NCBI GenBank assembly: GCA_963575745.1
Contig: CAUYUJ010000259.1
Coordinates: 620,001-663,409, forward strand
Direction of reading: 5' to 3'
From: Prorocentrum cordatum
Taxonomy: Eukaryota
DNA: 43,409 bases
The position numbers were made by a program, and so were the translations under genes. This document shows, in pieces, positions 15,606 through 43,409 of the stretch (positions within the stretch are counted from its first letter, which is position 1; the number at the start of each line of letters is the position of its first letter). The notes under the pieces are model-generated. The model saw nothing but the letters and a program-made list of their open reading frames with translations. It was not told the origin of the DNA and did no database searches.

Positions 15606-15865
15606 GGTCCCGGGACCCGGGACCGGCGCATGCAGGACCCTGGACCCGGACCGGCGCACCGGGTTTCGCGCCGGTCCCGCTTCCCGGGTCTCGCGCAGGT
15701 CCCGGGTCCCGGGTCCCGCGCCGGTCCCGGGTCCCGGGTCCTGGGTCCCGAGCCGGTCCCGGGTCCCGGGTCCCGCGCCGGTCCCGGGTCCCAGGTCCTG
15801 GGTTACGCGCCGGTCCCGAGCCCCGGGTCCCGGGTCCTGGGTCCCGCGCCGGTCCCGGGTCACGC
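15606..15865. repeat. 25-bp GC-rich satellite, block 1
   Basis: CCCGCGCCGGTCCCGGGTCCCGGGT units. The first ~55 bp are in the opposite orientation. Confidence 0.9.
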
Positions 15866-16349
15866 CTGAAGGCCCTCGGCCTTACTAGTTGTTAGCAGCA
15901 GTTGTAAGTAGGTTATAGGTAAGTTGCAACTAGGTTGCAAGTAAGTTATAACCATTAGTAATGTTACTAAGTCGGCTAACTCGGGCGGTGCATTTGGAGG
16001 TAGATAGCTTGAGTTAGCGAAGTTGCTAACTTCGCTAACTTTTACATGCTTACTTGAAAACAGAGCTGCTGCATCGGGTTTTCCTTGGATGTTGCCTCCA
16101 GAAACGCATGCATGTGTTTGGATTTTCGGGATCACGCATATCGGAAATCATGATCCAGACTTGCGTGCGAACGCATTCAGAATATTGTATCGAGCGTTAC
16201 AAGAATGTTGTGCATTGCAAATGCAACATATCATTTCGAATTCGCAACCCTCTGTTGCACATGTTTTTGAATGTCACTAGAGTTTGGGCTCCAGCCGTTT
16301 GGGCGAGGATTGCTGCTGGCGCTTGTGGCGTCCTCCTGCACGCGGCGTG

Positions 16350-18767
16350 ATGAACGCCTCCCGTGAACAGCAGATCGCGGAGGTCCGCCCCAAGATGATT
16401 GGCATCAAGGACATGCATTTGCATCCTGATGCAGCGGTGGTCTCATTACTTGAAGACGTATGCAGCATTGCAAGAGGCATAGACTGCCTGAGGGTAGAAA
16501 AAATACACTCGAAGTATATGATGGTGTGCACAGAGAATCGTTACGGAAATGGAATCATTCCGAGCGAGGTTATGGATTTGATTTCCAAGATCTTCAAAAA
16601 TGGATTCAAGAACTCAGCCCTCCAGAATCCAGCTTGCATGGAACTTCCACCAGTGGGCACGCCTGAGTACAATACAATCAAGAACTTCAATTTCAAAATA
16701 ATGGAGGACTCAGCGGGCCAGCTGCCGCAGTATGATTGCGATGCAAAGTTCGCATCCTATACGTGCGGCCACGCATCCATGGGTTTGCGTTGCATCAACG
16801 CAGGGGTTCCAGTACCCACGGTCATGCCAGAGCGTTTCGACAGAATCTCGCACCAAGGGAAATTGCCACTGACGAGGTCACGGGAAGTTCAACCAGACTA
16901 CGCTAAGGCGTGTGACGAAGGAATTGAGTGGAAGGTCTTTCGGTGCGAGTTCGTGAAGGAGTTCCCGTGGATTAGTAATCTTGCTCAGGAGGCTGGCAAT
17001 GCAGGCCAACAAATTGCCAGATGCGAATCTCGCATGAGTCTCATGTACAAGATCGCAGCAATTGCCAACCGACACCACACGGGTGGCACCATGATCGATT
17101 GGGATAGTGTGATCCGCGAGGCGACTCGCGCAGGCTCTCTCTTTCCTGGGGAGATCGATGGCTTAGTAAAATATGTGAAGGAGTTGTCTGGCGGCCTCGG
17201 CAACCCGATCTTTCTGAACGAGCTTCGCGACTTCTCGCGGCAGCTGACCTCCCAGTGCGTGGTCACGGGTTCAATGGCGAAGTCTCTCGCCGAGGTGCAG
17301 ATCAAGCATGAGGGGGCCGCTGCGACATTCAAGCTCGCATGCATGAAGGCGATGACATGTGCGACGGGTAAGTTCGCGAGGGATGGCCATCGGATGCTTT
17401 TGAAGCCAGGCGACGTGACCGCCTTGTCGAGCGATAAGAAGTCTACGATTGTAATGGTGGCCGATGAATTTCTTCAGAAAGTGCGACAGATCGCATGCGG
17501 TGAGGGCATCACGGCAGACACGGTCGCCTACGGCACCATCGTGGGATTGACTGACGTTCGCGTAGTTCATTTCGTGTTCAACAAGCCCGATGAGCGCTTA
17601 GGCACTTGCAAGACGCTGAATGACATCGGGGTCAGCTTCACCACTGCGTTGGCAACGCACGTTGGCAAAGCAGTTGCTAGCCCATGGAAGCAGATCGGTC
17701 GCGAGGGCGCATCCAAAGCCGTGACAGGGCAGGCGCGTAGCTCAGATGTGAAAGAGCACACCGCTTCGGGCAAGTGGTCGAACCAAGTGGACAAGCTCAG
17801 TGACAAGGGGTTTGAGGTTGGCGCCAAAGTCGCCTTGGCGAGCGACACCTTGGGTGAGAACATTTACGAGCTGATCTCCATCGACGCTGCGACTGGCGTG
17901 AAGTTGAAGCTTCAGGCCACGGGCAGTGCGACATGCCACCCCATCGACGACTTCTTACGTGGCAAGTTCGTCGTGTCCACGATTATGAAGGACAGTCTTG
18001 CGACCTCGTCGCAATGCATGTGGAATGCATATACACCCCCACACCTTTGAATTCTCGTTCGTCGTTCCCTCATCTCATTTGGCTCTGCGCCGTCATGTCT
18101 CATCTTTTGTTTCGCCGCTGCTCCCCCATAGAGGAAACGATCGACAAGTTCGCTGACCATGGCCCCCTCAAGTCTGTCGATTACCAGTGGGGCATCGAGG
18201 AGGCCAAAATCAGGCTGGCCTTGGATGATGTATACAGCCAGAACGGCAACTGTCTCAAGTACTTGAGTGGCGTGATTACGCCTGTTAAGCTTCGTGCTCT
18301 CACCGTAACGCGTTCGTTTGAGGCTGAAGAGCTGGTGCTTGTCCCACTCTCTTCGGCAATCTACTTGAAGAAGCAAACTGATATAGTTCAGCGTGGGCAT
18401 GCGTTTATGAAGACATACAAGGACCCCAAGGGATTGACGTTCAATATCGTGTTGGCCCCCCAGTGGTGGCATCAAGATTCCTAAGGCTGAGACGAACACT
18501 GGCGTTGGAGGGCTGAAGCAGGCACCGTCTTCGCTCGTCATCCCCTTCTGGCTCGCGCAGGATTCAGGTGAGCACGGCACCCCCAACATGAAGCTCAAGA
18601 CCGTCAAGTCTACAGCTGCCCCATCAGTGTATGTACCAATTTTGACGAACAAGTGCGCCATCAACAAGGGCGATGTCCTTAGCGCCCAGCTGGCATCGCT
18701 CATGCCCAAGCGCAAGGTAGGCGATGTGCCTGCTGCGCCCGCGGCTAAGAAGGCCAGGAAGCGATGA
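16350..18767 (+). CDS. Large cargo protein with a ParB/Srx-like N-terminal region and C-terminal NLS-like tail; spliced, one frameshift
   Basis: Non-repetitive ORF containing ENRYGNG..EVMDLISKIFKNGF..FASYTCGHASMGLR. A putative GA-AG intron at 17991-18133 restores the frame (K|ETIDK). A +1 slip in a poly-C run at ~18460 joins it to ...PFW..NM..VPILTNK..AKKARKR* (TGA 18765-18767). The ParB call is by eye only. Confidence 0.7.
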
Positions 18768-18986
18768 GGCTCGCGTGTTGGCAGCATCGGTTACACATAC
18801 CATGTGTCGTGGGGTGGTGTTTATGAAATGTATGAAAGCATCGTCGGTATCGTTCCTCTGCAATCGTTGCATCATTGCGTCAACGCGCATCGGACTCGTC
18901 TGCAATTGTCCATTGCATCGGCCCGCAGGCGTTTGGCTGTGTCCAAGCGAGTGCACGCTGCATCTGCGCACGCACTGCAGCTGCAG

Positions 18987-20438
18987 ATGGCAGTGAGCGT
19001 GCAGCTCCGCACGGTCATCGAGGGGGGCGGCCTTGCGGATCGCGAGCCATGGGTCCCGAGGGCGGTGATGCATGCGGCAGGGGGGCTCTTCGTGGAGCTG
19101 TCGAGAGCGGATAGGCAGCTGCAAATTTATTTCTGTGCCCAACCCCACCAAGAGCCAATCGCCTCTGGCGACAAATTCGTTTTTTCGCCGCTTGCACCGA
19201 GGCCATTTGGGACCACTTGAAGCAGGCCGACCCATTGCTTCAGCAAGATTGCGACAGGGCCAGCGTCATTAAGAACAATGGGAGTTCTCTGGATATGTCG
19301 CAATCGTGGACGCTTCGCGTATTCCCACCAGGGGAGGAGGAAGGAGAGGAGGAGGATGATACATTGGATGATGAGGTGGAGTGGCGGGGGAGGGGGGCGA
19401 GGAGGAGGGGCTGAAACAGAGGGGGATGGTGGAGGAGAAATGGAGGAGGGAAAGGGGGAGGAGGAAGGAGCATAAGGATGACAAAAAAGGATGATGAGGA
19501 GGAATAGGAGATGCCTTAATTCGCTTGCGTGAATAGGCCGCTCTTGGACCACTCTTGGATCGATCTCTTGACCTTGAGACTTCTTGGGCAATCTTGGATC
19601 GCGTGATATCTTGGACAAGCTTGGGCAATCTTGGGTCGCGTGATACCCATGCCTGCATGTTGAGGCATCGCGTGATATTGGGACATATCCGTGGACATCT
19701 TGAAGTATATATGAGCCCCTCTTGGAACCACCGTCCAGGCAAACCACTCCCCCAAGGGGATGCAGGGCGTAGAAGAGAACGCATTCTAGACATGTGCCCT
19801 AAAGGGATGGTGGTCTACCAGAAACTGTCTCGATATATATGCCCGCAGTCCAGTGCGACCATGGTGATGGGCATTTGCATCACGATGCAGTTACCTTGAA
19901 GCTTCTGTTTGAGCTGAATGCTACTAAGAAGGTGTGGGTCGAATGTACGCCAACGGGACTTGAGTACATACGGGTTGCATCTATCGCAGCAGCGGTTTCA
20001 TGCAGTCAGGAGGCAACACATCGCTTGCGGTCAGCACCAGCAGGGGTGGAAGGTGTGAAATGCGACAAACGTCGCAGGACGGTGTTCATGGTGGTCGACG
20101 GCAAGCGTCTGCAGGAGCGAGTGGACGATTGGACTCCCACGTACATCAACAACGCAGCCCAATCCCTTCGTGATCGCTTAGATAACGAGGCACGTGATGA
20201 GGCTGAAGCTGATGGGTCCGAGGAGTACTATGACCCGCCAGTCGCAGCAGGCGATGGCTCGCCACCAGGCGATGGCTCGCCACCAGGCGATGGCTCGCCA
20301 CCAGGCGATGGTTCGCCAGGCGATGGTTCGCCGCCAGGTGATGGTTCGCCAGGCGATGGTTCGCCACCAGGTGATGGGCCGCCCTCTGTTTTCACTCGCC
20401 GACGGGAGATGCGCCAGACGACGCTTAGCTTCCAGTAG
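18987..20438 (+). pseudogene. Interrupted hypothetical cargo gene with a C-terminal (GDGSPP)n repeat
   Basis: Starts MAVSVQLRTVIEGGG at 18987, has frameshifts near 19120-19220, and is interrupted by purine-rich and repeat sequence at ~19325-19785. It resumes as LPETVSIYMPAV..KKVWVECTPTGLEYI and runs to TAG at 20438. The 18-bp repeats lie at 20250-20380. Confidence 0.55.
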
Positions 20439-20512
20439 CTCCACTCCCTCTTCGCCTTCCCACCTCCCCTTCCCTCTCCCTCCAATCTCTATTCTATTTT
20501 TGCCTCGCGTGC

Positions 20513-21862
20513 TCAGTCCGAATCTGGCCCCGCTGGCGGCGGGGACTCAGTAACAGAACTCAGTTCAAGATGCGGAGGGCCATCGTCGCGCATGCCGCTG
20601 TTCGGCACATCGGCGTCCCTGCCCATGCTCATGCATCCGTCGTGGTCCGTGTCGTCGAGCAGGCCATGACCGTTCATGTCGCCCTTGCCCTCGCCGGAGC
20701 CCTTGCCACCGTCGTAGCCCCCGCCGCTGTCGAGGGCCGCCGCCTTGCCCTTACCACCGTCGTTAATGCTCTTGCCACCGTTGTAGCCCTCGCCATCGTC
20801 GTAGCCCTGGCCACCGTCGTAGACCTTGTCACCGTCGGTGCTGCCCTTGCTACCATCGTAGCCCTTGCCACCGTCGTAGTAGCCCATGGCCTCGTCGTCG
20901 ATGCCCGTGCCACCGTCGTAGCTTGTACAGCCGCGATCGATGCCATCAGCACCCTTGCCATCGTCGTAGCCCTTTTCGTAGCCCTTGTCGTAGCCCTTGT
21001 CGTAGCCATTGACGTAGCCCGTGTCGTAGACCGTGTCGTAGCCCTTGCTCGAGCTGCCGTACGGGTCGTAGCCTTTGTCGCTGCCCTTGCCGCCGTCGCA
21101 GCCGTTGTCGAAGCCCTTGCTCGAGCTGCCCTTGGCGCTGCCCGTGCCACCGTCGCCCTTGTCGTCGGCCTTGCCGCTGTCCGGCATCATGCCCTGCAGC
21201 CCGTCACGCTGCTCCTTCGCCAGCCTGATGTGGCCCCTGCCGCTGTCGCCGTCCTTGTCGCGGCCCTTGCCGCTGCCGTCCTTCTCGCGGCCCTTGCCAC
21301 TGTCGTAGCCCTTGCCCTTGCCACCGTCGTAGCCCTTGCCCTTGCCATCGTCGTAGCCCTTGCCACCGTCGTCGTAGCCCTTGCCATCGCTGTCGTAGCC
21401 CTTGTCGTAGCCCTTGTCGTAGCCTTTGTCGTAGCCCTTGTCGTAGCCTTCGTCGTGGCCCTTGTCGTAGCCTTTGTCGTAGCCCTTGCCATCGCCGTCG
21501 TAGCCCCTAATCAAGAGCTCGGCGATGTCGAGAAGCCTATCTGTCAGCCGCCGCTCCCGCTGGAGCTCCTGTATGGAGGGCGAAAATCCGCCGACCTCCC
21601 TCCTCCTGCGACACAGATTGACAAACAACGGGGGGTCAGTGAACCTGCCCCCTACCGCTGTGCACAGCTCGGGGTCAGCACACCTCCGAGCTCTCTGGAA
21701 ACAAGGGCCCAAGCTGAACCAATATCCAGCGGCCCCGAAACAGTAGCTCCCCCTGGGCCAGGCCTCTGAGCACCCTCTTACCCCAGGCCGAGGGGTGCCC
21801 ACAGACCTGGCCCAGCTTGACAACCTGCGTGGAGTAGACGGCCCCACACCTAACACAGACAA
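20513..21862 (-). CDS. G/Y/D/K-rich low-complexity protein (KGYD repeats); true start uncertain
   Basis: Open frame with GC3-biased GYDKG repeats. It shares HIRLAK..EQ.DGLQ..M.D.GKAD and KGSSSKGFD with the gene at 22714-23982. Confidence 0.6.
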   Translation of the reverse strand: MSVLGVGPSTPRRLSSWARSVGTPRPGVRGCSEAWPRGSYCFGAAGYWFSLGPCFQRARRCADPELCTAVGGRFTDPPLFVNLCRRRREVGGFSPSIQELQRERRLTDRLLDIAELLIRGYDGDGKGYDKGYDKGHDEGYDKGYDKGYDKGYDKGYDSDGKGYDDGGKGYDDGKGKGYDGGKGKGYDSGKGREKDGSGKGRDKDGDSGRGHIRLAKEQRDGLQGMMPDSGKADDKGDGGTGSAKGSSSKGFDNGCDGGKGSDKGYDPYGSSSKGYDTVYDTGYVNGYDKGYDKGYEKGYDDGKGADGIDRGCTSYDGGTGIDDEAMGYYDGGKGYDGSKGSTDGDKVYDGGQGYDDGEGYNGGKSINDGGKGKAAALDSGGGYDGGKGSGEGKGDMNGHGLLDDTDHDGCMSMGRDADVPNSGMRDDGPPHLELSSVTESPPPAGPDSD

Positions 21863-22713
21863 CTCCGCCAGAGAGATCTCCTCCCCCTCCTCCTTCTCCT
21901 CCTCCTCCTCCTAATCCTTCTCCTCCTCCTCTTCCTCCTCATCATCCTCGTCTTCCTCCTCGTCCTCCTCATCCCCCCTCATCCTTCTCCTGTGGCTCTC
22001 ACCCCAGCAGTCCTCTTGCAGGCGGCGCAGCGCCTCCGCGGAGGCGCTGCCATGGCGGCGCGGGCGGCGCGCGCGGGCCACCCGCGCGCGGCCACGCCCC
22101 CCTGGGAGGAGAAAGGGGTCCTCCAGGGGGCCTCGGTCCAGAAACAGCAGCGCGCGCAAATGGGGGGAGGGGGGGGGGGTGCGATTCAGGTGAGGGGGCG
22201 ATTCGGGTGAGGGGGCGTGGCTGCGTCGCGAATCGTTTCGCGCTGTGCACTCATGGGTGCATGCAGCAATGCATGCGTTGTTTCAGAGTCTACTTGGGGA
22301 TGTGAACTTGAAAATGAGATGCGTTAACATCGTCGTCTGCGTTCGCTCGAGACAGCCTCACAATTAACTCAGCATCACACGACCTCACAATGAACTCAGT
22401 ACCGCGAACCATGATGTTGGTTATGGTATGCCATGCAATGCTACGCTATGATGTGAATATCCCTCCCCGGCCTCATCCCCTCCGTTGCCACCGCCGTTTA
22501 GGCCCGAGCGTTGCTTGGGTCGCGACAGTGCGCGACCAGCTGCAGCGCTCCACGCGCAGCAGCTACCAGCGCTCCGCGCGCAGCAGCACCAGCTGCAGCA
22601 GCACCGCCAGTGCATCCAGCAGCTCCACGCGCAGCAGCACCAGCTGCAGCAGCGCCACCAGTGCAACCAGCAGCACCACCCGCAGCAGCACCACCAGTGC
22701 AACCAGCAGCACC

Positions 22714-23982
22714 ATGGCGGACGAGACCGCGGTGACGCTGCTCCTGGAGGCGGCGGAGGATATCAACCAGCGGCGGCGCGCGGCGGCCGCGGTCTTGCAG
22801 CCCACCAGCAAGGTGGCCCCTCGGCCGCCAACCACGCCGCCGACGGCGAAGGTCTTGGCGAAGTACGATCGCTCGCGCGTGGCCGACAACTTGCTCGATG
22901 ACATGGGCATGGCGCCCGCGCTGGATCCCGAGTTGAACTCGTTCCAGGGCCTGCAGGAGTTCATGGGCGACGGCGATGGCGACGACACGGGCTACGACTA
23001 CGCCAGCTACGACGGTGGCAAGGGCATCACCGACGGTGGCAAGGGCTACGGCGGTGGCAAAGGCAGCTCGAGCAAGGGCTTCGACAAGGGCCACGACGAT
23101 GGCAAGGGCAGCGGCGAAGGCTACGACATCGACAAGGGCCGCGACAAAGGCTACCACGGTGACAGGGGCGACGTGGGCTACGACGGTGGCAAGGGCGACA
23201 AGGGCTACGACCGCCGCTACGACCCGTGCAGCTCCAAGTGGTATGACCGCCACAGCTCGTGGTACGACCGCGACGACGATGACTACGACAACAGGTGGTG
23301 CGACCGCAAGCGCTGGGGCGACTACGACAAGGGCTCGAGCAAGGGCTACGACAACAGAGGCTACGACAGCAAGGGCTACGACAAGAGTGGCAACTACCAG
23401 CGTGGCTACGACAACCGTGGTTACAACAACCGTGGCTACGACAACCGCGGATACGACAGCAGTGGCTACGACAACCGTGGCTACGACAACTACGGCAACA
23501 GTGGCTACGACAGCCGTGACTACGACCGCAAGGGCGACAAGGGCTACGATCGCAAGGGCGACAAGGGCTACGATCGCAAGGGCTACGACGTCGGCAAGGG
23601 CTACGACGGTGACACGGGCTACGGCGGTGATCCAAGCTACGACCGTGGCGATACAGGCTACGACAGTGGCAAGGGCATCGACAGTGGCAAGGGCCACGAC
23701 GGCGGCAAGGGCGATAAAGGCTACGACGGCGGCAAGGGCTGGCGCGAGGAGAAGTCCCGCGGCGGGCGCCACATCAGGCTGGCGAAGGCCCTTGCCACCA
23801 AGGAGCAGCTGGACGGGCTGCAGGACCTGATGTCGGACCGCGGCAAGGCCGACTACGTCAGGTGGAGCAAGCGGACGCACTGGCGCATCTGGGTGGAGGA
23901 AAACAATACAGATCTAGTTCTATCGGGCCCCCTCATCCCTCCTCCTTCAACGGTTCTTACCAAGGACGAGGGGGAAGGATGA
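22714..23982 (+). CDS. G/Y/D/K-rich low-complexity protein, paralogous to 20513-21862
   Basis: ATG in accATGG context after a CAG-rich leader. It has a unique N-terminus (MADETAVTLLLEAAED), then GYD repeats, then a unique C-terminus. Confidence 0.7.
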   Translation: MADETAVTLLLEAAEDINQRRRAAAAVLQPTSKVAPRPPTTPPTAKVLAKYDRSRVADNLLDDMGMAPALDPELNSFQGLQEFMGDGDGDDTGYDYASYDGGKGITDGGKGYGGGKGSSSKGFDKGHDDGKGSGEGYDIDKGRDKGYHGDRGDVGYDGGKGDKGYDRRYDPCSSKWYDRHSSWYDRDDDDYDNRWCDRKRWGDYDKGSSKGYDNRGYDSKGYDKSGNYQRGYDNRGYNNRGYDNRGYDSSGYDNRGYDNYGNSGYDSRDYDRKGDKGYDRKGDKGYDRKGYDVGKGYDGDTGYGGDPSYDRGDTGYDSGKGIDSGKGHDGGKGDKGYDGGKGWREEKSRGGRHIRLAKALATKEQLDGLQDLMSDRGKADYVRWSKRTHWRIWVEENNTDLVLSGPLIPPPSTVLTKDEGEG

Positions 23983-24215
23983 GGGCCAAGAACTGGATAT
24001 GGAATGTGTTCCTCCTCCCGACATCTGGGCGGAGGCGGCAGTTCGCCGCTGATCCGCAGCGCCAGACGCCACTACCAAAGCGGCGCCGAAGCCGCCGCTG
24101 TCGCCATTGCGCCTCGAGCGCCCGTGCCGCCACCAGCGCGGCAGCAGGCGTCGAGTCCATTCTAGACCGCGCGCTGCATCTCCTCCGTCGGGCATGATCT
24201 ATTATGGTGGGGGTT

Positions 24216-24510
24216 GTCGTATGTAAGATTCTGACATACGACGCAGTTGTCGTATGTAAGATTCTAACATACGACAAAGTTGTCGTATGTAAGATTCTGA
24301 CATACGACACCGTTGTCGTATGTAAGATTCTAACATACGACGGATGTGTTAATATAATCCTTATGATATCTATAAGAGCGAGATGTCGTATGTACGATTC
24401 TTACATACGACAACGTTGTCGTATGTAAGATTCTAACATACGACAGATTTGTCGTATGTAAGATTCTGACATACGACAGATTTGTCGCATGTGAGATTCT
24501 GACATACGAC
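24216..24510. repeat. Array of eight 27-bp palindromes (33-bp period) arranged 4 + 43-bp spacer + 4
   Basis: GTCGTATGTAAGA-T-TCTDACATACGAC starts at 24216, 24249, 24282, 24315, 24385, 24418, 24451 and 24484. The AT-rich spacer is 24342-24384. Confidence 0.95.
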
Positions 24511-24659
24511 ACCAAGGGTTTGAGCTCATGTTTAGAGTAAACTTCGAGGGTCTCCATCTCGCTCGTGGTCGACGTTGCGCCTAGAATTGGCTTGTCTGCT
24601 TGGCTGCGCTGCCCGCGGCTGCGCTGGATCATGTTGATAAGTGATGCATGAGCGTGGCG

Positions 24660-25540
24660 TGAGCGAGAATAAGGGGGAGTGGGATGAGAGGAGGACGCGC
24701 GGGAGAAGGAGGACAAGGAGAAGGAGAGGGGGGAGGATTCTGAGGAGGAGGTGGGGGGTGAAGAGGAGGAGGAGGAGGGGAAGGCCCATCCTCCCCCTCA
24801 TCCTCATCCTCCCCCTCCTACCTTTATCCTCCTCATCCTCCTCCTCCTCCGCCGCCGCCTCCTCATCCTCCTCCTCCTTCTCCTCCGCCTCATCACCCTC
24901 CTCATCTTCCCCCGCCTCCTCCTCCTCCTCTGCCTCCTCTTCCTCATCCTCATTCTCCTCCTCATCATCCTCATTCTCCTCATTCTTACTCCGTCTCATT
25001 CTCACCCTCTTCATTCTCATCATGTCTCCTCCTCGTTCCCGCCGTCGCCGTCGTCGCCGTCGAAGCCGTCGCCTGCGTCGTCATCTGCGCGCGCGGTGCA
25101 GGAGAGGGCGGCGGCCGCCGTGACGACCACGATTGAACGACAACGAGGATGAGGAGGAGTAGGAGGAGGAGGAGCATGAGGAGGAGCAGGACAAGGAGCA
25201 CGCGGAGGAAGAGGGGGACGATGGGGAGGAGGAGGAGGAGGAGGGGGAAGAAGATGAGGAGGAGTAATTGCCATGGCGGCTGCGATAGCGACGGCGACGG
25301 CGAAGAGTTGGTGGCGACGAGCTGGCTGCGACGAGTTCGACGGCGGCGGGGGCGACGGCGGGGGCGTCTCCTCCTGCTCCTCCTCCTGCTCGCCCTCCCC
25401 ATTCTCCTCATCCTCGTCCTCCTTCTCATCCCCCCTATCCCTCCTCACCATTCTCATCCCCATCATCCTCCTTCTCCGTCTCCTTCACCTCCGCCGCCTA
25501 ACCCTCCTCATCCTATTCTTATTTCTCCTCGTCCTCATTC
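24660..25540. repeat. (GAG)/(CTC) purine-pyrimidine low-complexity tracts
   Basis: Alternating GAG-rich and CTC-rich blocks. Confidence 0.85.
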
Positions 25541-25676
25541 GTATTCGTATCCTCGGTCTCTCCGCAGGGTGCTTTATCGCGCGAAAAGCTGCAACGAGAA
25601 CCTGAAGGCTCGCATACATGCGCTTGCACGCACAACCCCAACGAGCCCCCATCTAAGTACGCCCCGACACCCACAC

Positions 25677-26603: not shown

Positions 26604-26606
<3 letters not shown>

Positions 26607-26641: not shown

Positions 26642-26644
<3 letters not shown>

Positions 26645-32802: not shown

Positions 32803-33034
32803 GATCGACCTGGCACTTTCCTTGGGTCGCACTATAGTCCAACCCATGATTTTTGGCCAGGTCGTACTTTTCTTCGCTCGCGCATTGTTAAGGATCCCCT
32901 GAGTGAGGGGGCATGCGTCCCCTGAGCGAGGGGTATCGGCTGCATCACATTGCGCGCATGTTACAACATCCCGCAGCTGCGAAGGCTCGAGGGCACATAG
33001 CGCTACTCTTGCTTGCGCGCACTGGGGGTGGGCA

Positions 33035-34440
33035 ATGGTCAAGGGCAAGACGGAGGTGAAGATACGGGCTTCTTCTGTGACAGAGGAACAGTTGAAGCCG
33101 CTCGTGAAACAGCACATTGATCTCATCGAAAAATGCCAACTGCAAGGGGGCATAGATGACTTCATGAAGAACAACATGCCGTTTCTCTTGCCGCTTGCGC
33201 AGCTCACCACACGCGTCAAATGGAAGAACCTCCAGGACGTCGTGTTGAAGCAGAAGCCGAACATGCACCAGGAAGAGTGTAGGCGTTTCTGCCAGGAGGT
33301 GGCCAACGCTTTCAGCCATGTTTGCAACAAGTTCTACATCGCCAAGACGGGGGGGAAGCTGGAGGCGCACACAAAAATGCTTGGGGTGGCAATGGGGCTG
33401 CAGCCTGGCAGGGCAAGCCCAAGCACAGGAGAGAGCAAAAAACGCGCCGACAGCAGCTCCGACATAGAGATGAACCCTCCAAAATCTTCCACGGCCGCCG
33501 CGTCGTCCAGCGCAGATGGGGGCAGCAGGCGCAATGTCATCAAGAACGCCTTCGGCATCAGCCCGCCTCCGAAACCGGCAGGGAAGAAACAGAAGGTTGC
33601 CACGTGGAGCCCGATGGTGGTGTTCTCGTCGCAGGAGGACGTCGAGCTCGCTGACCCGCCCGCCGCGGCCCCGAAGGAGGATCGGAGGGGGCGGGCAGGG
33701 TGGGGGGGGGAGGGGAGCAGTTTTGATTTTTCACGGCGTAACCGAACCCCTTCGGGAGGGGAGCTCGGGAGGGGCAAGTGAGAGACCCGCCCCAGGATCC
33801 CCTGGCCACGTATTTCGATTTCAACTCCGAGCCGATGTGCATGGTGATGAAGTTCGCAGACAGGGAGGAGCGGGGAACACTGACGAAAGGAGGCGATGGT
33901 TTCTTGGATGCCGTGTTTCCCGACGGCAGGACGGAGAAGACGGAGCAGCCCAACGCCCTCCTGGCAGCAAGAGCGGCAGCCGCGCAGGCGAAGGCGAAAG
34001 CGTGCAAAAAAGGGAAGCCAGCAGGACATGTAGTGGCAAAGAAGCCTGCAATGAGAAAGCCCAGTGCAGCCGCCGCGAACACGGAGACGGACCAGGACGA
34101 TGAGGGGGAGGAGGAAGAGCAGCTGGAACCCGATGAGCCCGTGGATGCTGCAGATGAGCCCTCGGTCGGCGCTGGGCCCCCCGCTGGCCACGCCGACCGC
34201 GGGTACAGCGTGATGTACTACAAGAGGGACCACTCTATCGGGTTGAAGCGGACGCACGGTGAGAAGAACCAGTTTGTGAGTTTCGGCGGGAAAAAGTACA
34301 AGGACACCTTGGACGAGGCCACGCTCAGGGAGATCGGCGCAGAGCTGAAGAAGGCCTTGGTCGACGGCACCGTGGCTGACACCAAGGAAGCTGCTAAGGC
34401 GGAGGCTGAGCGCTTAGTGGCACAGCGCTTGGGCGACTAA
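33035..34440 (+). CDS. Two-exon cargo protein with a K/P/A-rich linker and a small basic C-terminal domain
   Basis: Exons 33035-33679 and 33796-34440. A GA-AG intron with AG|GATC at both junctions joins ORFs 32903 and 33778 in frame. Confidence 0.7.
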
Positions 34441-35408
34441 TCGCATCCATCCTCATCATCGCATCCATCATCATCATCATCCTTACCGTCTTCATCGCCA
34501 TTGCCATCGCCATACCCGTTGGCAGAGCGCCCTCTCCAGTGCTAGACGACACCCCCTCATCGCAGGGGCGCCCCTCCGTGAGGGGACCGCGCGATGGATT
34601 GGCGAGTGATGGAACCCCTTAAGAGGGGAACCCCTTAAGAGGGGCTTCAGCACACTCGCGATAAGACAGGGCAACGGCCCCCTCCGAGAGGGGACCCCTC
34701 GGGGAGGGGATCAAAGGTGCGGCAGTCTGCTTACTCATTATGTGTATGGCATTGCGTTTCCTCCTCGTTCCATCCCTCTCCCATTTGCTTTCATGTTCTT
34801 CATCCGCAACCGTTCGACAGAGCTGACGCCCAGCGCGCTTGGGGGCCAGCCCCCCGCCCCGAGCTCGCGGCCATGCGGGCGCTCATCGCGCGCCTCTCGG
34901 CGCTCCAGGCCGCGCGGAAGCAGAATGCAAGGGGGGAGTTGGGGCAGGATGAGGAGAAAAGTAAGAGTGACGGCCACTTGTTTGGCCATCTGGGCGATAA
35001 AAAATCAATCCAGCAGCCGAGTTTTAGACCCACCTTTTTTAGCAAAAAAAGGGGGGTCTAAAATTGGACGAATTCCTATGAAATTCCATTACATTCACCC
35101 CCCCGAAGGGCCTCCCACGAGGCCCCCAGATTTTAGCCTTTTGAGTCTGACTAAAAACTTTCGGCCGCAACCGTTCTGGACCCCAGGCTTCCGGCATGAT
35201 GATGTCGGGCGGCTGCGGCGGCGGGCTGCCTCCAGAAGGCGGTGGCGGCGGCAAGCGGCCTCACGAGGAGCTGGGGGTACACGTGGTTAAGGCGCCCCTT
35301 CCTGAGGGGATCCGTTTACAGAGACCCCTGCCAGAGGGGATTTATCGATAGAACCTCCCCTTCCTGAGGGGATTCATTCACAGAGACCCGTGACCCTTCC
35401 TGAAGGGA

Positions 35409-35774
35409 TTGATTTACAGAGACACCCTGCAGGACGGGCACGCGCCTGTCTTTGAGGTCGACGACGACGACAGCGAGGCGGAGGAGGAATTCATGCTGGA
35501 CTTCCAGGACCACAGGAAGCGGTACACCCGCTCGTCCCACCGCTTGTGGCTTCGCAAGATGAACTGCAAGAAGTGTTGGCAGTGCGGCAAACACACCTTC
35601 TTCTCGGTGTGCGTTGGCAAGACGTGCCAGGAACACCACGCGACCCAGTGGTTCCACGAGCACGGCGACCGCGACCGCAACGGGAGGAGGTGGAGGGGCG
35701 GCAAGAGCGAGGTCGCCAGAGCCAGGCAACGCAAGGGTGCAAGTGGTGGGGAGGGGGGAACCCTCAAACATTGA
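35409..35774 (+). CDS. Possible small Cys/His-rich (zinc-binding-like) protein
   Basis: CKKCWQC..C...CQEHH cluster and GC3-rich codons. The start is uncertain. Confidence 0.4.
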   Translation: MIYRDTLQDGHAPVFEVDDDDSEAEEEFMLDFQDHRKRYTRSSHRLWLRKMNCKKCWQCGKHTFFSVCVGKTCQEHHATQWFHEHGDRDRNGRRWRGGKSEVARARQRKGASGGEGGTLKH

Positions 35775-36219
35775 GGAATGAAGTTATGTCGGTTTGATGT
35801 TTTGATGTTCTCAATGTTTATCCTGGTCAGTTTTCTGCGCCTGCCAGGCACTGGCAGCGGAGGTGCGATACCAGGGAGGCGGTCTTGGTCGGCCTGCTGC
35901 AGGACCGCACCCCCCCCCTCTGCCCCGCGCTGCCAAGAAGGGAGGGCCCCTGTTTGAGGGGATAAACGAGGGGGGACCGAATAAACGCAAGAAGAGGCCC
36001 CTCTCATGGGGGTGAGCTTACTTCGTCGTTCCCCGACAGGAGCAGCAGAACGAAACAGCAGCGCAGCCGCCGCCCCCGCAGGGGGGGCCAACGCCACCGA
36101 TCGGCCCGCCACCCGCAGCACTGTTAGCAGCAGCAGCGGCTGGACACCCCGCAGCAGCAGCAGCAGCAGCAGCACCGCCCGCAGCAGCAGCAGCAGCAGC
36201 GGCAGCACCTGCCGAAGCA

Positions 36220-36975
36220 ATGCAGGTTGACGGATCCGACGACGGAGCCCGAGAGGGGGAGGAAGAAGAGGAGGATGAGGGCGAGGAGGAAGAGGGCATG
36301 GAGGAGGAAGCGGAGTCAGAGGAGCCTGATGAGCTGATGAGGCTAGAGGAAGAGCACGCAAGGCAGCATCGGAGGCTCTTGCGGGCATTGAATCGCACGG
36401 AGGCGGCGCAGAGGGGCGTCGAAAGGCACAAGGAGCGCCTTCGGCAGGAGCAGGAGCGCAGGGCAGAGCAGGAGATCATCCGCCTGAGGCGGGCGCAACA
36501 ACAGCAGAGGGACGCCGCGCTGAGGCGGGAGGCAGAGGCCCGCCTGGAGCTGCAGAGGGCAGCAGAGGCCGCCGAAGCGCAGGCGAGGACGAGGCTGCTG
36601 GCTGCCGAAGCGGCCGCACGGAGGGCGGAAGAGGCGGCCAAGGCTGCCAAGGATGCGGAGGACGCAGCGCGGGCCAAGGAGGAAGCGGAGCAGAAACAGA
36701 AACGAGAGGCAGAGGAGCGGCAGGCGGCAGAGACGGCAGCGCCAGAAGCGGCAACACCAGAGCAGCCAGAGACGGGCGCAGCAACGGCGGACGCAGCCAG
36801 GGCGGACGCGGAGAACGCAGACAACAAAAAGAAGGACCCCAAAGCAAAAAAAAGGCCCCGCGCGGACCAGGCGGGGGGCAGACCCTCGAAAGGAGGGAGG
36901 GGCGACAAAGACAAGGACAAGGACACTGAGAAGGACAAGGGCAAGCGCCCGAAGGCGACCTCTAAGAGGGGCTAG
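36220..36975 (+). CDS. A/E/R-rich coiled-coil protein with an acidic N-terminus and basic C-terminus
   Basis: 251-aa ORF preceded by a CAG-rich leader, with heptad-like composition. Confidence 0.65.
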   Translation: MQVDGSDDGAREGEEEEEDEGEEEEGMEEEAESEEPDELMRLEEEHARQHRRLLRALNRTEAAQRGVERHKERLRQEQERRAEQEIIRLRRAQQQQRDAALRREAEARLELQRAAEAAEAQARTRLLAAEAAARRAEEAAKAAKDAEDAARAKEEAEQKQKREAEERQAAETAAPEAATPEQPETGAATADAARADAENADNKKKDPKAKKRPRADQAGGRPSKGGRGDKDKDKDTEKDKGKRPKATSKRG

Positions 36976-37299
36976 GACCGCTTCTCCATCCTCCTGGTCA
37001 CTCTTCCTCCTGCTCCTGCTTGTCGCCCGCCCTCCTCCTTGTCCATATCCCTCTTGCTTCTGCTCTTCCTCCTTGTCAATCTTCCTCCTGCACCCCCATC
37101 CGCCCCAGGACGGCGCGCCCTGAGCCGCGGGGCGACCGCGTCGGCGACGGCGCCGACATCCATATACATTTGCGCGGCCTCTCGCGCCAGAATAGAGGCG
37201 GTACGGGTTAAGGGGACTCTGATTGACTGTGGCCCCTTCATTGCAGGGGCGCGCGCGGCTGCCCCTGGCAGAGGGGACGGGCGATCACGAAACCGATTA

Positions 37300-37490
37300 T
37301 CTTAAGGGGAAATTCTCTTTGGAGAATTCTCTTAAGAGAATTCTCTCTTAAGAGAATTCTCTTAAGAGAATTCTCTTAAGAGAATTGCGTGGATGTCTCA
37401 GGCAAAACCAACAATTCTCTTAAGAGAATTCTCTTAAGAGAATTCTCTTAAGAGAATTCTCTTAAGAGAATTCTCTTAAGAGAATCTCTC
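37300..37490. repeat. Self-complementary 14-bp tandem array (AATTCTCTTAAGAG)n split by a 26-bp spacer
   Basis: Overlapping palindromes GAGAATTCTC and CTCTTAAGAG. The spacer is 37387-37412 (GCGTGGATGTCTCAGGCAAAACCAAC). Confidence 0.95.
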
Positions 37491-38283
37491 TCGTAAAGGT
37501 CGCTTGCAGTGCACCCCCCCTCGCTGCATGGGGGCCAGACGAGCCCCGCTGAGGGGCGAAACGCCCCTGGCTGAGGGTGGGGGGGGGAGGGGGCGGGGCT
37601 GGGCCGTATCTGACGGGCCCCCTAGGGGGGTTGGGGGGCGCGGTGTTCCTGATTGAGGGGGGCCCCTGAAACATCTTTGACGGGCCCCTTGCGGAGGGGC
37701 ACCGCCGTCCTTCACTGAGGGTGAGCCCCTTTAATGAGGGGGGGCAGTGTGAGCAGGGGCAGCAGGGGGGAGCAGTAGCATTGCATCATGGGTGAGTCGT
37801 TCGGGCCCCTGTGCTTGCCTGCCGCGCAAAGCAATCCAGAGAGGGGGGTGCCCCTTTTTGAGGGGGCGCGCACCCCTTACTGAGGGGGAGGCCCTGGCAC
37901 ATCCCCTCCCCCCCCCCGCCTCACCGCTGATGAGGTAGCACCCCTTCTCTTCGAGGGGGAGGAGGCGACCGCGTGGGTTGCGAGCCCCTTCGAGGGGAGA
38001 GAAACGAACCCCTGGCTGAGGGGAAGGCTCGACGATACTGAAATGTACCACCACACACGCCACACCCACAGCACCACACCACACCCACACGCACCACTGA
38101 AGTGCGCGGGGAAGGCCCCCGACGATCTACTTGCCATTCGCAGGCGTTTCGGCTGCCGCAGGGCATTTCGATTTTGCTGCTGTATCCCAAATTTCAGGGG
38201 TCAGTCCCGCGGCAGCCATGCCCGCCCCAGGAGTAGTCTCTCCTCTGCTCCTGCTGGGCACTCTCCTCACACCGTTGTGCAGC

Positions 38284-39557
38284 ATGGCGCCGAAGAAGAA
38301 GATCGAGGGCCAGGGCGCACCAGCGGCGAAGAAGTCGAAGGCGGCCCCGAAGGGGCACGGGCTCGACAAGCAGGAGGCCGACAAGATGAGGGCGTGGCTC
38401 AAGTACCAGTCGGAGAAGAAGGACGGCAGCGGGAAACCTACGAGCACAGCAGAATCCGCCAGAGCAGCCCAGGCGCTTTGGAACGGGATGAAGGACCCAG
38501 CCGATCGGAAGCGTTTCTTGCAGACCTTCGCGAGTGACAAGGATAAGACACTTGACTGGTTGGCCACCTTCGAAGAGAGATGCACGAATGAAGAGGTGCA
38601 CGCGCGCTCTGCCAAGAAAGGGTACCGGAATGTATCGCAGGCACTGGCCCTCAAGAACCTCACCATCAAAGACTTTGCGAACATCCAGGAAGCCACTGCC
38701 TTCGTGCAGGAATGGTGGGAGGAGAACAGCGAAGAGCATGGCACCAAAGAAGAATTCCCCATCAAGGAAGATGTCAAGGACAGGCCTCTGTGGAAGGAGT
38801 GGTACTTCGTCGAGCGCAACATGGACGATGACCAGCTGGTGACGAAGGACTCGCGCACCTTCAAGGGGACGTCCAACCTGAAGAACCTGAAGCAACTCGA
38901 AGCTGCAGGCATCAGGATGGCCGAGCTCCCGTCGTCCAGCGCTTCGGGGTCGGGTGGGGGCGGCGAGGTGAAGATCGAGAATCCGCACTGGCCAGAGATC
39001 GTGAGTAAGAAGGACGAGATCGCGCGCCGTCCTCGGCAGCCGCCCCCTGCCCTTCCATCTCTGGTGCTCTGCCAGACCCCTCCCAGAGGGGGGCCCTCTC
39101 CCCCGCCACGCCCCCGCCGCCCCTCCTGGAGGGGATGGCGATAGAAACTGTTCGTATCCGTTCTGTCGTGCGTTGTTTGCGTTGAAAAGCATGTCGGCGC
39201 ATTGCTTGTTTATGATCCCTACCAAGGCAAATGCTGGTCAAGTATCAGAAGGAGCTGAAGTTCCTAAAGCACACGAAGAATCAGTTGCTCGCGAAGGCTG
39301 GGGATCAGGATCAGAAGGACCGTCAGAGCTTCCAGAACTGGGCCGATGAGTGCAAGAAGTGCGTGGACAATGCGGACCAGCACGAGACGGCGATGGAGGT
39401 TCTGATTGCGAAAATTGAGGGCGCTGATTCTGTCGGCAAGGACACGGACATGTACGATAAGCTGAAGAATGAGGTCCAGGCCGCCTACAACACACACGAG
39501 CACATGTACGAGGGCATTCAGCTCTCGGTCAAGCGCTTCAAGAAGTTCCTCAATTGA
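38284..39557 (+). CDS. Two-exon hypothetical cargo protein with an N-terminal NLS-like MAPKKK and helical C-terminus
   Basis: Exon 1 runs from 38284 to ~39023 and exon 2 from 39227 to 39557 (acceptor ccaag|g). The donor position is approximate. Confidence 0.7.
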
Positions 39558-39987
39558 GCTGCGGCCCTACATCTACATCTACATATCAGTATTTACATGC
39601 ATATATGCAGTAGGGTTTGAGATGCTCTGCCTCGCCCGACGACGCGCATGCAGCGCTGCCTTTCCGACGCCCGTGGGAAAACGAGAACTTGCCGCTTCCT
39701 CTGCCAGGGGTGCCCCTTCGTGAGGGGCCGCGTGTTTCTGGGTTTGCCAGTAAAGAAGCCCCCCTCATCGCAGGGGCGCGGGGGGAGGGGGGGGCGGGGG
39801 GGAGGGGGGCTTGGTATCATCAGGAGGGGAGTAGCAGGAGGGGAGGGGCATGAAAGGGATTGAAGGAGGGCGCGGAGGAGGGGCGCGGGAAAGGGCAAGG
39901 GCCCCTTGCCTCATCCGCGCATGTCCGTAGCCACTGCAGTGGCTCAAGGCCGCCGCGCTCGCGCCTGTCTCCCGCGGGCCCCGCGGG

Positions 39988-41866
39988 ATGCTTTCCAGGC
40001 GGCGGTTGCCTTATGACAGGTTGGGCTTGCCGCCGGAGAGGCGGCTGAGAGCGAACGTGCAGGACCTGATAAGCAGCAACGTGGTCAGCGGGCAGCGCGG
40101 CGCTCAGCTGATCAATGACTGCGTCTCTGCATCTGCGACAGGTCTCTCCGACCTGCACACTACGGAGTCAACGTCGGGCATGAAAAACGCTGCCAGGAAG
40201 TTCAGGCGGGATTTCTTCAGGAAAGGGTGGCCTCCGCTCTATCACTGCCAGGTGAGGGGCTGGGACCCCAAGTCTGAAACAGAACAACTGATGGACTTAG
40301 CGATGATGCTTCCTCACGAAATACTTCATCAACTTCATCATTTTGGCGAGCGGAGCGTGCTACTGGAGACGTCGAGTCTCGACGGCGTGTCTCTGCGCCA
40401 CGTGCAAAGAGCCAGGGCGGAGAGTGGTTGCAACGACCTGGTGGCCCTGGGCGTGTGGCAGGACGGGGTCCCTTGCTTTTGGGACCGATCGATGAGCGCA
40501 GAGATCATCAGCCTCATGTTGCCAGGGGCTGCGGGGCGCTGGAAAAACCTGCGGGTCCCAATCACAGCGTTCCTCAAAGAGCACGTGGGCCCCAACACAT
40601 TTGATGATGTTTTTGCAGTGGTGCAGTGGAGCTTTGTTCACTTGGCTGCGAAGCGCTGGCCGGCGGCACGGCACGACGGCTCTCCCTTCGGCGCGCAGGA
40701 CGCCTGGAGGAAGCGCCGACAAGTGGCCGATGCAACCCTACCAATTGGCGGAGTGCTTTGCCAGATCAAAGGGGACTGGAAGATGATGAAGGAGGTGCTC
40801 AAGCTACCTGGCTGGCAAGATGACGAAGTATGCTTCCTGTGCAACATCAAGAAGGACGAGGCCATGGGAGCGCAACACATCAGGGGAGGAAGGAAATCCC
40901 CTCTGGGAGGGGGTGCGTCGTCGTCGTTTTGCGGCCCCTTCAGGGGGGGTGGAGGAGGAGGGGGAGGAGGGGTGGAGGAGGAGGAGGAGGAGGAGGAGGA
41001 GGAGGAGTGTTTTTGGCTACTCCCCGCAGGTGAAATCGCAGACTGGGAGAGACGCGCCGTGGAGAACGCACCGACGCACATGGCCAGAAGTCCTTGCGAA
41101 GATTATCGTTTCAGGCGAGCAGGTGTGCCCTCTCTTCCAAGTGCCGTATGCGAACGAAAAGTTGCTGAAGCTAGATTGGTTACACGTTGTTGATCTTGGA
41201 GTAGCGGCTGACTTCATAGGGGGTTTGCTATGGTATCTTGTAACGCACAAAAAGGTGGCTGGAACTACCCAGAAAGGCCGCGTCTCCACACTACATGGTC
41301 ATTTGATGGCGTTCTACGACAGGCAGCCGCCAGGTGAGAAGACCAGCCGCCTATCGAGACTGACGCGGGGCGTTGTGAAAGGAAAAAAAGCAACGACGGC
41401 TAAGATGAGGTGCGGCGCGGGGATGCTCAGGCACATGGTTCCATGGGCATTGGAGATGGCGGAGGCTTTCCTTGATAGGAGGAATGGCGTCGACGAGCGG
41501 GCAGCTGTAGAATCGTCCATTCACGCAGGGATGAAAAGCTTATGTCGGTGTTACGAGGCACTCTCTGACAATCACCCATTTGCTGTGGACATTCTTAGAG
41601 AGCATTCGAGTAAGTTTGCCACGCAGACGGCCGCTTTGCAAGACGCGCTTCCTGCCCATTTGAAAGTGAAGCCTAAAATGCACATGTTTCTGGAGCTGTG
41701 CATGGGCGGCGGTGAACCAGCGAAGCACTGGAACTATAGGGATGAGGATTTCGGTGGATCTGTAGCTGCATTTGGCCGAAGGAGGGGCCAAAGGAGGTCC
41801 ATGAGAGCGTTTTCGGTGGCATGCATCTCTAAGTTCTGCGGCCAGCCGATTGTGCGCATGCTTTGA
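39988..41866 (+). CDS. CACTA/CMC-like DDE transposase, two exons, apparently intact
   Basis: A phase-0 GC-AG intron at 40861-41029 joins ORFs 39988 and 40820 (..KKDE|VKSQT..). Motifs VWQDG, KGDW, CFLC, LDWLH, KPKMH and WNYRDE are in the CMC order. Confidence 0.8.
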
Positions 41867-42051
41867 AAAGAACGCTTCTGTGTGTATCGTTGTCATTCAT
41901 TGCTGTCGGCTCAAATATATGTTGGACCCCTCCCAGTGGGGTGAGCGCGAGCATGGGCGCTGAAGCCCCGTTTGCCCCAAAACGGCGGGTCGAACTATTT
42001 TCGGCGCGCCCGAACTATAGATCGACCCGCAGAAAAGTATAACCCCCGCAT

Positions 42052-42095
42052 TATAGTTCGACCCCGCACTATAGATCGACCTTGGAGTCTCAAGG
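42052..42095 (-). repeat. Right TIR of element B
   Basis: Exact reverse complement of 32759-32802. Confidence 0.97.
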
Positions 42096-43009
42096 GGGTC
42101 CCTCGCCGGTGCCGCGTTCCGGGTCCCGGGTCGGGGGTGCGTCGCGCGGGTCCCGGGCCCCGGGTCCCGAGTCCCGCGCCACGCGCCGGTCCCGGGTGGT
42201 CCCGGGTCCCGGGTCCCGCGCCGGTCCCAGGTCCCGCGCTGGTCCCGGATCCTGGTCGCGGGTTCCGCGCCGGTCCCGGGTCCCGCGGGTCTCGCGCCAG
42301 TCCCGGGTCCCGGGGTCCGCGCCGGTCCCGAGTCCCGGGTCCCGCGCCGATCCCGGGTCCCAGATCCCGCGCCGCAAGGTCGCGGGTCCCGGGTCGCGCG
42401 CCGGTTCCGAGTCGCGGGCCCTGAGTCCCGGCCTCTGCGCCGGTCCCGGGTCCCAAGTCTCCCGGGTCCCGCGCCGGTCCCGGGTCCGGGGTTCCGCGCC
42501 GGTCCCGGGTCCCGGGTCTCGCGCCGGTCCCGGGTCCCGGGGTCCCGCGCCGGTGCCGCGTCCCGGGTCTCGCGCCGGTCCCGGGTCGGGGGTGCCGGGT
42601 CGCGCGCCGGTTCCGGGTCCTGGGTCCCGGGTTCCGCGCTGGTCCTGCGCCGGTTCCGGGTCCCGGATCGCGCGCCGCAAGGTCGCGGGTCCCGGGTCGC
42701 GCGCCGGTCCCGAGTCGCGGGCCTGAGTCCCGGGTTCTGCGCCGGTTCCGGGTTCCAAGTCCCCCGGGTCCCGCGCCGGTCCCGGGTCCGGGGTTCCGCG
42801 CCGGTCCCGGGTCCCGGGTCTCGCGTCGGTCCCGTGTCCCGAGGTTCCGCGCCGGTGCCGCGTCCCGGGTCCTGCGCCGGTCCTGGGTCGGGGGTGCCGG
42901 GTCGCGCGCTGGTCCCGAGTCCTGGGTCCCGGGTCCCGGGTCCCGCGCCGGTCCCGCGCCGGTCCCGGGTCCCGAGTCCCGCGCCGGTCCCGGGGCCCGG
43001 GTCCCGCGC
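42096..43009. repeat. 25-bp GC-rich satellite, block 3, with a ~303-bp higher-order duplication
   Basis: Same unit as blocks 1 and 2. The variant GCCGCAAGGTCGCGGG occurs at ~42371 and ~42674. Confidence 0.92.
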
Positions 43010-43409
43010 CTACTTGGATGGCCGCGGCGGCTGCTAGGTGGTTAGCGCGGATACTAAGGGGTTAGAGGATTTAGTATGTACGTGCAAGTGAGTTGTAAGT
43101 AGGTTATAAGTGTTGTAAGTCGGATGTAAGTTGTATAACCAGCTACAACTGGTTAGTAGGAGATACTAACCACTTATAGCTGGAGACTAACCTTGCTAAG
43201 TCTCTAGTAGAGGTTAGCTCGCTCCAGTAACCACTTACTAACCACTTAGTAACCAAATAGTAAGTCCGCTAGCTAGCTTACTTACTAAGTGGCTAGCGGA
43301 CTTACTAAGTGGTCAGCGGACTCTGAGAAGGAGAAGGAGGAGGAGGAAGAGGAGGAGGAGGAGGAGGAAGAGGAGGGGGAGAGAGGAGGAGGAGGAGAAG
43401 GAGGAGGAG
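43010..43409 (+). mobile_element. Probable left end of a third element (C) related to element A, truncated by the window edge
   Basis: Abrupt switch from satellite to AT-rich TAAG/GTTAG/ACTAA-rich sequence. The 18-mer AGTTGTAAGTAGGTTATA at 43091 is identical to 15900 in the subterminal region of element A. Confidence 0.6.

Follow-up and report, generated by a model that had tools for sequence, protein, structure and literature searches.

DNA transposons of the CMCT clade, comprising EnSpm/CACTA, Mirage, Chapaev, Transib, Plavaka, ESTA as well as Lanisha, encode transposases whose motifs follow the order D, D, C(2)C, H(3)H/E and E, and, as given in the available part of a recent survey, they generate target-site duplications of 2-5 bp and mostly have 5'-CA..TG-3' termini (Kojima 2025, PMC12730594). 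The accessible portion of a report on red algae (Bostrychia, 10.1101/2025.02.11.637652) describes giant Plavaka elements of 17-19 kb, which carry accessory genes and internal inverted-repeat arrays. Strict target choice is well known in retrotransposons and rare in DNA transposons; the available part of the paper on the DNA transposon Dada states that such specificity had until then been seen only in retrotransposons without long terminal repeats (non-LTR retrotransposons) (Kojima and Jurka 2013, PMC3706591). Here we describe a 43,409-nt stretch of Prorocentrum cordatum DNA (contig CAUYUJ010000259.1, positions 620,001 to 663,409), hereafter the window, of ~60% G+C, in which two complete elements with terminal inverted repeats (TIRs), termed A and B, and the start of a third, termed C, each interrupt the same satellite array. 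All coordinates are window positions.

We propose, at a probability of about one half, that A, B and C are CMCT-like cut-and-paste transposons that integrate preferentially into CCGGGT-type arrays. The satellite is built from the 7-mer GGTCCCG and the 11-mer GGTCCCGCGCC, which combine into units of 18, 25 or 32 bp, the most frequent being the 25-mer GGTCCCGGGTCCCGGGTCCCGCGCC. A satellite 14-mer, with up to two mismatches allowed, has 97 matches in the 43.4 kb against 0.97 expected, and all 97 fall inside three blocks, with none elsewhere in the window (Table 1). The blocks differ in their variant units and are co-oriented, except for the opening ~50 nt of block 1 (15606-15658), which are inverted. 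Through this flip in orientation the array begins, on its left, with a short palindromic junction. The initial annotation of this DNA had placed two TIR elements (16.7 and 9.3 kb) plus the beginning of another within one satellite, with ~230 bp between A and B. Apart from minor adjustments of coordinates this is confirmed: the lengths are 16,667 and 9,337 bp, the satellite is divided into three blocks, and the spacing measures 227 bp.

Table 1. Positions of the satellite blocks, the three elements and their component features
Feature	Position	Length	Strand	Description
Satellite block 1	15606-15864		+	GGTCCCG / GGTCCCGCGCC units
Element A	15865-32531	16,667 bp	+	12-nt TIRs at 15865-15876 and 32520-32531
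A left subterminal repeats	15880-16060		+	AAGTAGGTTATAG, AAGTAAGTTATAA and GTTAGC/GCTAAC motifs
A cargo ORF P0001	16281-18047	589 aa	+	open frame, coding-like G+C at third codon positions (GC3)
A cargo ORF P0193	20516-21910		-	G-Y-D-K-G repeat protein
A cargo ORF P0192	22318-23979		+	G-Y-D-K-G repeat protein
A internal array	24213-24512		none	two clusters with eight hairpin units of ~33 bp in all, TTGTCGTATGT..ACATACGACA
A cargo, two ORFs	28251-29762	297 and 206 aa	+	coding-like; directly upstream of transposase gene
A transposase gene (family 1)	30207-32289		+	ATG at 30207; relatives map to 30240-32280, in two frames
Satellite block 2	32532-32758	227 bp	+	orientation as blocks 1 and 3
Element B	32759-42095	9,337 bp	+	perfect 44-nt TIRs at 32759-32802 and 42052-42095
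B cargo ORFs	33035-33778 and 33742-34437		+	coding-like; no family match
B internal array	37311-37491		none	~11-12 copies of 14-bp palindromic unit GAATTCTCTTAAGA, in two clusters
B cargo ORF P0194	38101-39141	347 aa	+	open frame, coding-like
B transposase gene (family 2)	39988-41866		+	exon 1 with ATG at 39988; exon 2 at 41030-41866; both exons open
Satellite block 3	42096-43010	915 bp	+	degenerate 25-bp units
Element C (start)	~43009-43011 to 43409		+	terminus (CC)TACTTGGATGGCC; continues past window end

Element A is bounded by exact inverted copies of the 12-mer CCTGAAGGCCCT, which is found only at these two places in the window. The inverted repeat extends to 13 nt once the adjoining base is included, and the ends read CCTGAAGG..CCTTCAGG. 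A 12-nt inverted pair alone is not significant in 43 kb, but the position of both arms exactly at satellite boundaries is. A smaller version of A with an inner left end was rejected, as neither a second terminus nor a subterminal motif lies inside A. In element B the two TIRs are identical at 44 of 44 bases, and the ends read CCTTGAG..CTCAAGG. Beyond CCT..AGG the TIRs of A and B are unrelated, as the initial annotation had stated, and its description of TIR transposons with subterminal repeats and several extra open reading frames (ORFs) holds as well. The GGTCGAWCTATAG-type motif of B occurs in 11 copies, ten of which lie within ~110 bp of the ends, five per end; the one weak match elsewhere compares with 0.51 expected. 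Motifs of the AAGTAGGTTATAA type occur at the left end of A and at the visible end of C, with three matches against 0.09 expected. Only ~400 bp of C are visible, and its copy of AAGTAGGTTATAA stands at 43097. The terminal cores of the two elements are also alike (CCTGAAGGCCC in A and CTTGGATGGCC in C). On the basis of this motif and core, C is a relative of A with a family-1-like end, and B is of another kind. The type of subterminal motif found at the left end of A is present not only in C, but also in a metagenome contig, L001, described below.

All three left junctions read G/CCT, where the slash marks the element boundary: CACG/CCTGAAGG in A, TCGG/CCTTGAG in B and CGCG/CCTACTT in C. The right junctions of A and B both read AGG/. 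The termini are thus CCT..AGG, and none of the visible ends, five in all, has CACTA; a 2-nt displacement of the boundaries would turn them into TG..CA, again different from CA..TG. The flanks being repetitive, the exact ends carry an uncertainty of 1-3 nt. Element B has GG on both sides, and deleting B together with one GG restores an exact 25-mer, within these repetitive flanks. Element A is flanked by ACG and CCG, identical at two of three positions, and deleting A with 3 nt restores the 7-mer period, again within repetitive flanks. On either side of A, and likewise of B, the satellite flanks are direct repeats with a single orientation. These co-oriented flanks, together with the restored repeat phase and the sharing of one array by two families with unrelated ends, argue that the satellite array existed before A and B inserted. 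The idea that the satellite itself consists of stacked insertion footprints was rejected, because the duplication of 2-3 bp does not fit the 7-8-bp unit.

Both transposase genes lie ~230-240 bp from the right end of their element on the plus strand, so A and B have the same orientation, in agreement with the earlier description. The A gene shows a +1 frame change in a T7A4 run near 30790-30800, a place that the contig of sequencing run X2 covers without a gap relative to the window, and it has an in-frame stop at 31729-31731 in the present assembly. Compared to the window, the contigs of all four sequencing runs that cover the elements (see below) are without 1 nt at 31711 and 2 nt at 31731; removal of these three bases opens the frame and restores a conserved motif. 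At least one frameshift of the A copy is real, and the stop and the disturbed H(3)H motif may be assembly errors or private to this assembly. The extra bases at 31711 and 31731 are possibly long-read consensus errors in short base runs. A programmed -1 frameshift at the T7A4 run was rejected, as the required shift is +1.

The ORF P0003 (30799-31728), a part of the A transposase gene, has 1,530 relatives at E≤1e-3 and 591 at E≤1e-10 among 1.84 billion representatives, and most of them are 650-700 aa long. The B gene contains an intron with a strong acceptor at 41029 and two in-frame donors, GT at 40972 (58 nt) or GC at 40861 (169 nt), the latter giving the spacing seen in family-2 relatives. 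Its best relative, P0191, matches the two exons at 38% and 33% identity. The B-family profile gathers 134 proteins, which measure ~560 aa if full length. Relatives of both families are encoded on contigs of 2.5-4 kb. Members of both large families occur widely in public protein sets of genomes and metagenomes, and Pfam covers neither family; owing to this absence they are unannotated in current protist genome projects.

In family 1 (n=51), the residues D160, D268, C287, C290, D385, H388, K528, H530, H534, E551 and H554 are invariant. Family 2 keeps D161, D264, a DWLH motif and a KPKxH motif, with C284 and C287 nearly invariant. A putative DDE catalytic triad can be placed from the invariant columns. 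The initial annotation had called the two transposases divergent, and pairwise BLAST of one against the other indeed gave nothing significant. Alignment of the two profiles with hhalign is colinear over 425 columns, motif on motif, with E 9e-5 and a probability of 59%. We take this as weak evidence that the two families may be homologous, at best distantly.

The motif order D, D, C(2)C, H(3)H, E of the CMCT clade is fully present in family 1, and family 2 has the C(2)C with mostly H(3)E. This likeness suggests that the two families belong to, or sit beside, the CMCT clade, whose elements also have subterminal repeats and into whose range the apparent 2-3-bp duplication would fall. Compared to EnSpm/CACTA in the strict sense, the subterminal repeat arrays are present in A, B and C, but the CACTA (CAC..GTG) termini are absent. 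By motif order A and B are therefore classed as CMCT-like; they do not belong to EnSpm/CACTA proper. Of the initial label "CACTA/CMC-like", the CMC-like part is thus borne out by motif order, but the CACTA part is contradicted by the termini, and Pfam has no transposase model that matches an ORF of the window or any of 70 relatives. In particular, PF02992 (Transposase_21) and PF18759 (Plavaka) have no match among 91 ORFs of the window and these 70 relatives; 18 scanned relatives of the A transposase contain no Pfam domain, nor do the precomputed Pfam columns of the relatives list one. In a protein language-model atlas, the neighbours of P0156 carry Plavaka (0.93), Transposase_21 (0.91) and DUF1258, and a neighbour of P0005 carries Plavaka (0.89), which may serve as leads toward Plavaka/Transposase_21.

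Judged by the accessible portion of the Bostrychia report, A and B resemble giant Plavaka elements in their size of 9-17 kb, in the several genes inside the TIRs and in the internal palindromic arrays. They differ in gene content, as the parts described there are methylase/SET and ParB-like/2-oxoglutarate-oxygenase ones, whereas the ORFs of A and B match no Pfam family. In addition, that portion reports no satellite-specific insertion. Since giant Plavaka elements with accessory genes have already been described, large size and cargo are not new for the clade. The multi-gene cargo put forward at the outset as a possible novelty is accordingly present, in the form of extra ORFs, but not new as such. 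Dada, as presented in the available part of its description (PMC3706591), follows the strategy proposed here, cut-and-paste movement into multicopy sequence where it does no harm, with fixed orientation. It belongs to another superfamily, however, and targets tRNA and small nuclear RNA genes, with many documented copies compared to the four junction sets here. Non-LTR retrotransposons specific for repeats (ribosomal DNA, microsatellites and telomeric repeats; PMC4640811, PMC6530143, as far as the available text goes) similarly use tandem repeats as a safe haven, but they are RNA-mediated and endonuclease-dependent, and have neither TIRs nor a DDE transposase.

A profile search of metagenome contigs with family 1 gave 38 candidate stretches and three confirmed loci (L001, L002 and L003). 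Only L001 reaches an element end, as L002 and L003 stop before theirs. L001 has a G+C content of 0.51 and an intact A-type ORF of 724 aa, with 40% identity to the first sequence of the profile, followed by subterminal TTATAAGTAGG repeats and then by 14.4 copies of CGGGTGAC that run to the contig end. This terminal array, (CCGGGTGA)n, has the hexamer CCGGGT in common with the window satellite, and the L001 core, CTGGAATGCCC, can be aligned to the terminal cores of A and C. Relative to the transposase gene, the strand of the array matches that in A and B, so the orientation is identical in all three. A short K/E/R-rich ORF (L001 positions 461-640) stands upstream of the transposase ORF in L001. 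L003 is a near-identical second contig of the L001 region from another sample, and neither reaches the left end of the element. The same profile found no locus in viral contigs (IMG/VR) and none in the genome contigs searched, a query with P0191 found none in viral contigs (IMG/VR), and the B TIR had no exact match in metagenome contigs or in the genome contigs searched. A family-1 subterminal 14-mer gave 113 IMG/VR loci, which were rejected as chance matches, since none of the 113 has a CCGGGT array or a second copy of the motif.

These features are consistent with a mechanism in which A, B and C would be cut-and-paste DNA transposons of two deeply diverged families. A DDE transposase would bind subterminal repeats, which are of the AAGTAGGTTATAA type in A and C and GGTCGAWCTATAG in B, cut at the CCT..AGG termini and integrate the element with a 2-3-bp duplication. 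The integrations would have occurred independently, into a pre-existing (CCGGGTC)n array with GCGCC spacers, and the extra ORFs and palindromic arrays would travel inside the TIRs. Both families might prefer such a G-tract-rich repeat as a target, recognising, more speculatively, either a motif or the structure of the G-tract repeat. A CCGGGT-type array borders all three window elements and the only informative related contig, L001, which amounts to four junction sets only. As a rough estimate, the chance that three insertions fall in ~1.4 kb of satellite within ~17 kb of DNA outside A, B and C is (1.4/17)^3, or about 6e-4.

Several observations weigh against this reading. The preference rests on four junction sets in two organisms, and the surrounding 15 kb are repeat-rich without recognisable genes, so that an insertion-tolerant region could collect elements. 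As to the CMCT affinity, the termini are CCT..AGG instead of CA..TG, CACTA, TGT..ACA or CATCA..TGATG, and most family-2 proteins, including that of the window, have H(3)E in place of H(3)H, the H being found in P0191. None of the 91 ORFs of at least 110 aa at 16281-41896 reaches a curated Pfam cut-off, such matches as they have being of low complexity, Pfam transposase models match none of 51 family-1 and none of 19 family-2 proteins even at E≤5, and profile searches of the PDB were empty at E≤10 for both families, with no match to RAG1 or Transib structures. The hhalign probability of 59% makes for a weak link between the two families. In addition, the duplication at A is imperfect and differs in size from that at B (3 nt compared to 2 nt), and the A transposase frame is broken by a 1-nt shift that is also present in the contig of another run. 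Satellite targeting is thus plausible, if unproven. The homing initially suggested gains from the L001 array and from the in-phase, co-oriented flanks, but these data do not separate preference for the satellite from retention in it.

Retention by itself could produce a similar picture. Elements that insert nearly at random might persist only in gene-free repeat DNA (heterochromatin, centromere- or subtelomere-like regions), in which case selection instead of target choice would account for their location. Among 48 ORFs of the upstream 15.6 kb, Pfam recognises no gene and gives only sub-threshold low-complexity matches; this DNA is full of other repeats (an 89-bp satellite foldback and trinucleotide arrays), and a small TIR element also abuts the array. 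As the initial annotation had stated of CACTA/CMC elements, CMCT elements are not generally regarded as site-specific. Nevertheless, all three insertions lie in one 1.4-kb satellite and none in the neighbouring repeats or in each other, and L001, a relative from a different organism, likewise terminates in a co-oriented array of CCGGGT type, for which chance sharing of a co-oriented hexamer is roughly estimated at <1%. We consider such passive accumulation possible but doubtful. The recurrence of the array at a family-1 end in two organisms of very different base composition can be turned another way, as such sharing is unexpected for fast-evolving host satellites: the satellite might be made by the elements, as a by-product of integration, excision or repair, or be carried along as the true outer portion of the mobile unit. 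At each visible boundary of the satellite there is indeed a transposon end (the small TIR element, A, B or C), and the array flips its orientation at 15606-15658. However, parts symmetric with the TIRs would be inverted, whereas the flanks of A and B are direct; the repeat phase continues exactly across B after one GG is removed; the same array is shared by two families with unrelated ends; and a 2-3-bp duplication is far shorter than the 7-8-bp unit. An element-borne origin is therefore improbable.

The succession of A, B and C could also stem from a long-read assembler that collapsed similar arrays. No listed contig of the four sequencing runs bridges a junction, the contigs stopping at 32531 and ~14 nt inside the B TIRs, and the small indels relative to these contigs around 31711-31731 are typical of long-read consensus errors. 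Even in a wrong order, though, each element would still border the satellite and the association would stand; moreover, block 2, at 227 bp, is far below long-read length, and the blocks are distinguishable by their variant units. We regard an artefact of this kind as very unlikely. Finally, a size of 9-17 kb, TIRs, several ORFs and a probably marine protist host are, from general knowledge, typical of integrated virus-like elements such as Polinton-like viruses, virophages or Mavericks. Such an identity for A and B is hardly credible, because Pfam (91 ORFs) and PHROGs (14 ORFs) searches gave no capsid, packaging ATPase, polymerase or integrase family, because A and B each code for a transposase-like protein of DDE type whose relatives lie on 2.5-4-kb contigs, and because related loci sought in IMG/VR were not found. 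Preferential integration of A, B and C into the satellite is the reading that we favour.

Apart from the transposase genes, A and B carry cargo ORFs and internal arrays (Table 1). The G+C content of A is 0.58-0.64 in the middle and 0.51-0.53 at the two ends, and the GC-richer middle may be captured host DNA. P0193 and P0192 are paralogues, inverted (divergent) relative to each other. They share a conserved block ending in HIRLAK (within 20516-23979), and neither belongs to a known family. The cargo ORFs of A and B were assigned to no family in Pfam, PHROGs and NCBIfam, nor, for some of them, in a PDB search. PHROGs searches of 14 cargo ORFs and NCBIfam searches of the same 14 plus P0156 and P0205 gave only sub-threshold low-complexity matches, and Rfam and tRNA scans gave no match. 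At E≤1e-3, no ORF of A resembles anything in B or in the upstream 15.6 kb, and no cargo is common to A and B. The palindromic arrays inside A and B recall the inverted-repeat arrays of giant Plavaka elements, as outlined in the accessible portion of that report.

Elements A and B exist in other data sets. Words sampled from B are present in 20 runs of 15 studies; ten of these runs hold at least half of the words, and several of the ten are labelled marine or seawater metagenomes. Contigs from four runs cover A and B piecewise with few differences, and they end at 32531 and ~14 nt inside the B TIRs. Among the joints and loose ends listed (15 of 61 and 24 of 576, respectively), there is no junction-bridging contig and no joint that skips A or B.

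Several further repeats lie to the left of the array. Directly against the satellite's left margin lies a small element of ~217 bp (15393-15609) whose ends, inverted over ~20 nt, read CGATGAGACCTSGCGCGC; it may be non-autonomous and likewise placed at the array. Its terminal motif recurs at 15372-15385, and CCAAGAG-type subterminal repeats fill 15300-15600. A foldback at 11479-14965 consists of two ~1.4-kb inverted arms, 85.6% identical to each other and composed of an 89-bp satellite (~13 copies each), which flank ~680 bp (12905-13584). In addition, degenerate GAT-type trinucleotide arrays of ~650 bp each, with 212-218 copies and a strong GC skew, occupy 1961-2618 and 9913-10557.

In the open-access literature, we found no description of a satellite-specific DNA transposon, nor of matching haptophyte-like algal transposons. 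The new part of the present locus is the possible homing to a satellite. A further-reaching proposal would make these two ancient lineages, both uncovered by Pfam and represented by at least 1,530 and 134 protein clusters, the first cut-and-paste DNA transposons that home in fixed orientation into G-tract-rich (CCGGGTN)n satellites, through a motif or a structure such as a G-quadruplex, and that use them as landing pads for multi-gene cargo with its own palindromic binding arrays; this is tentative, and we would not expect it to hold in full. If satellite homing is true, large elements with gene cargo would have a novel means of persisting harmlessly in their host, transposons would be tied to how satellites arise and turn over, and a natural model would be at hand for the safe-harbour integration of long DNA.

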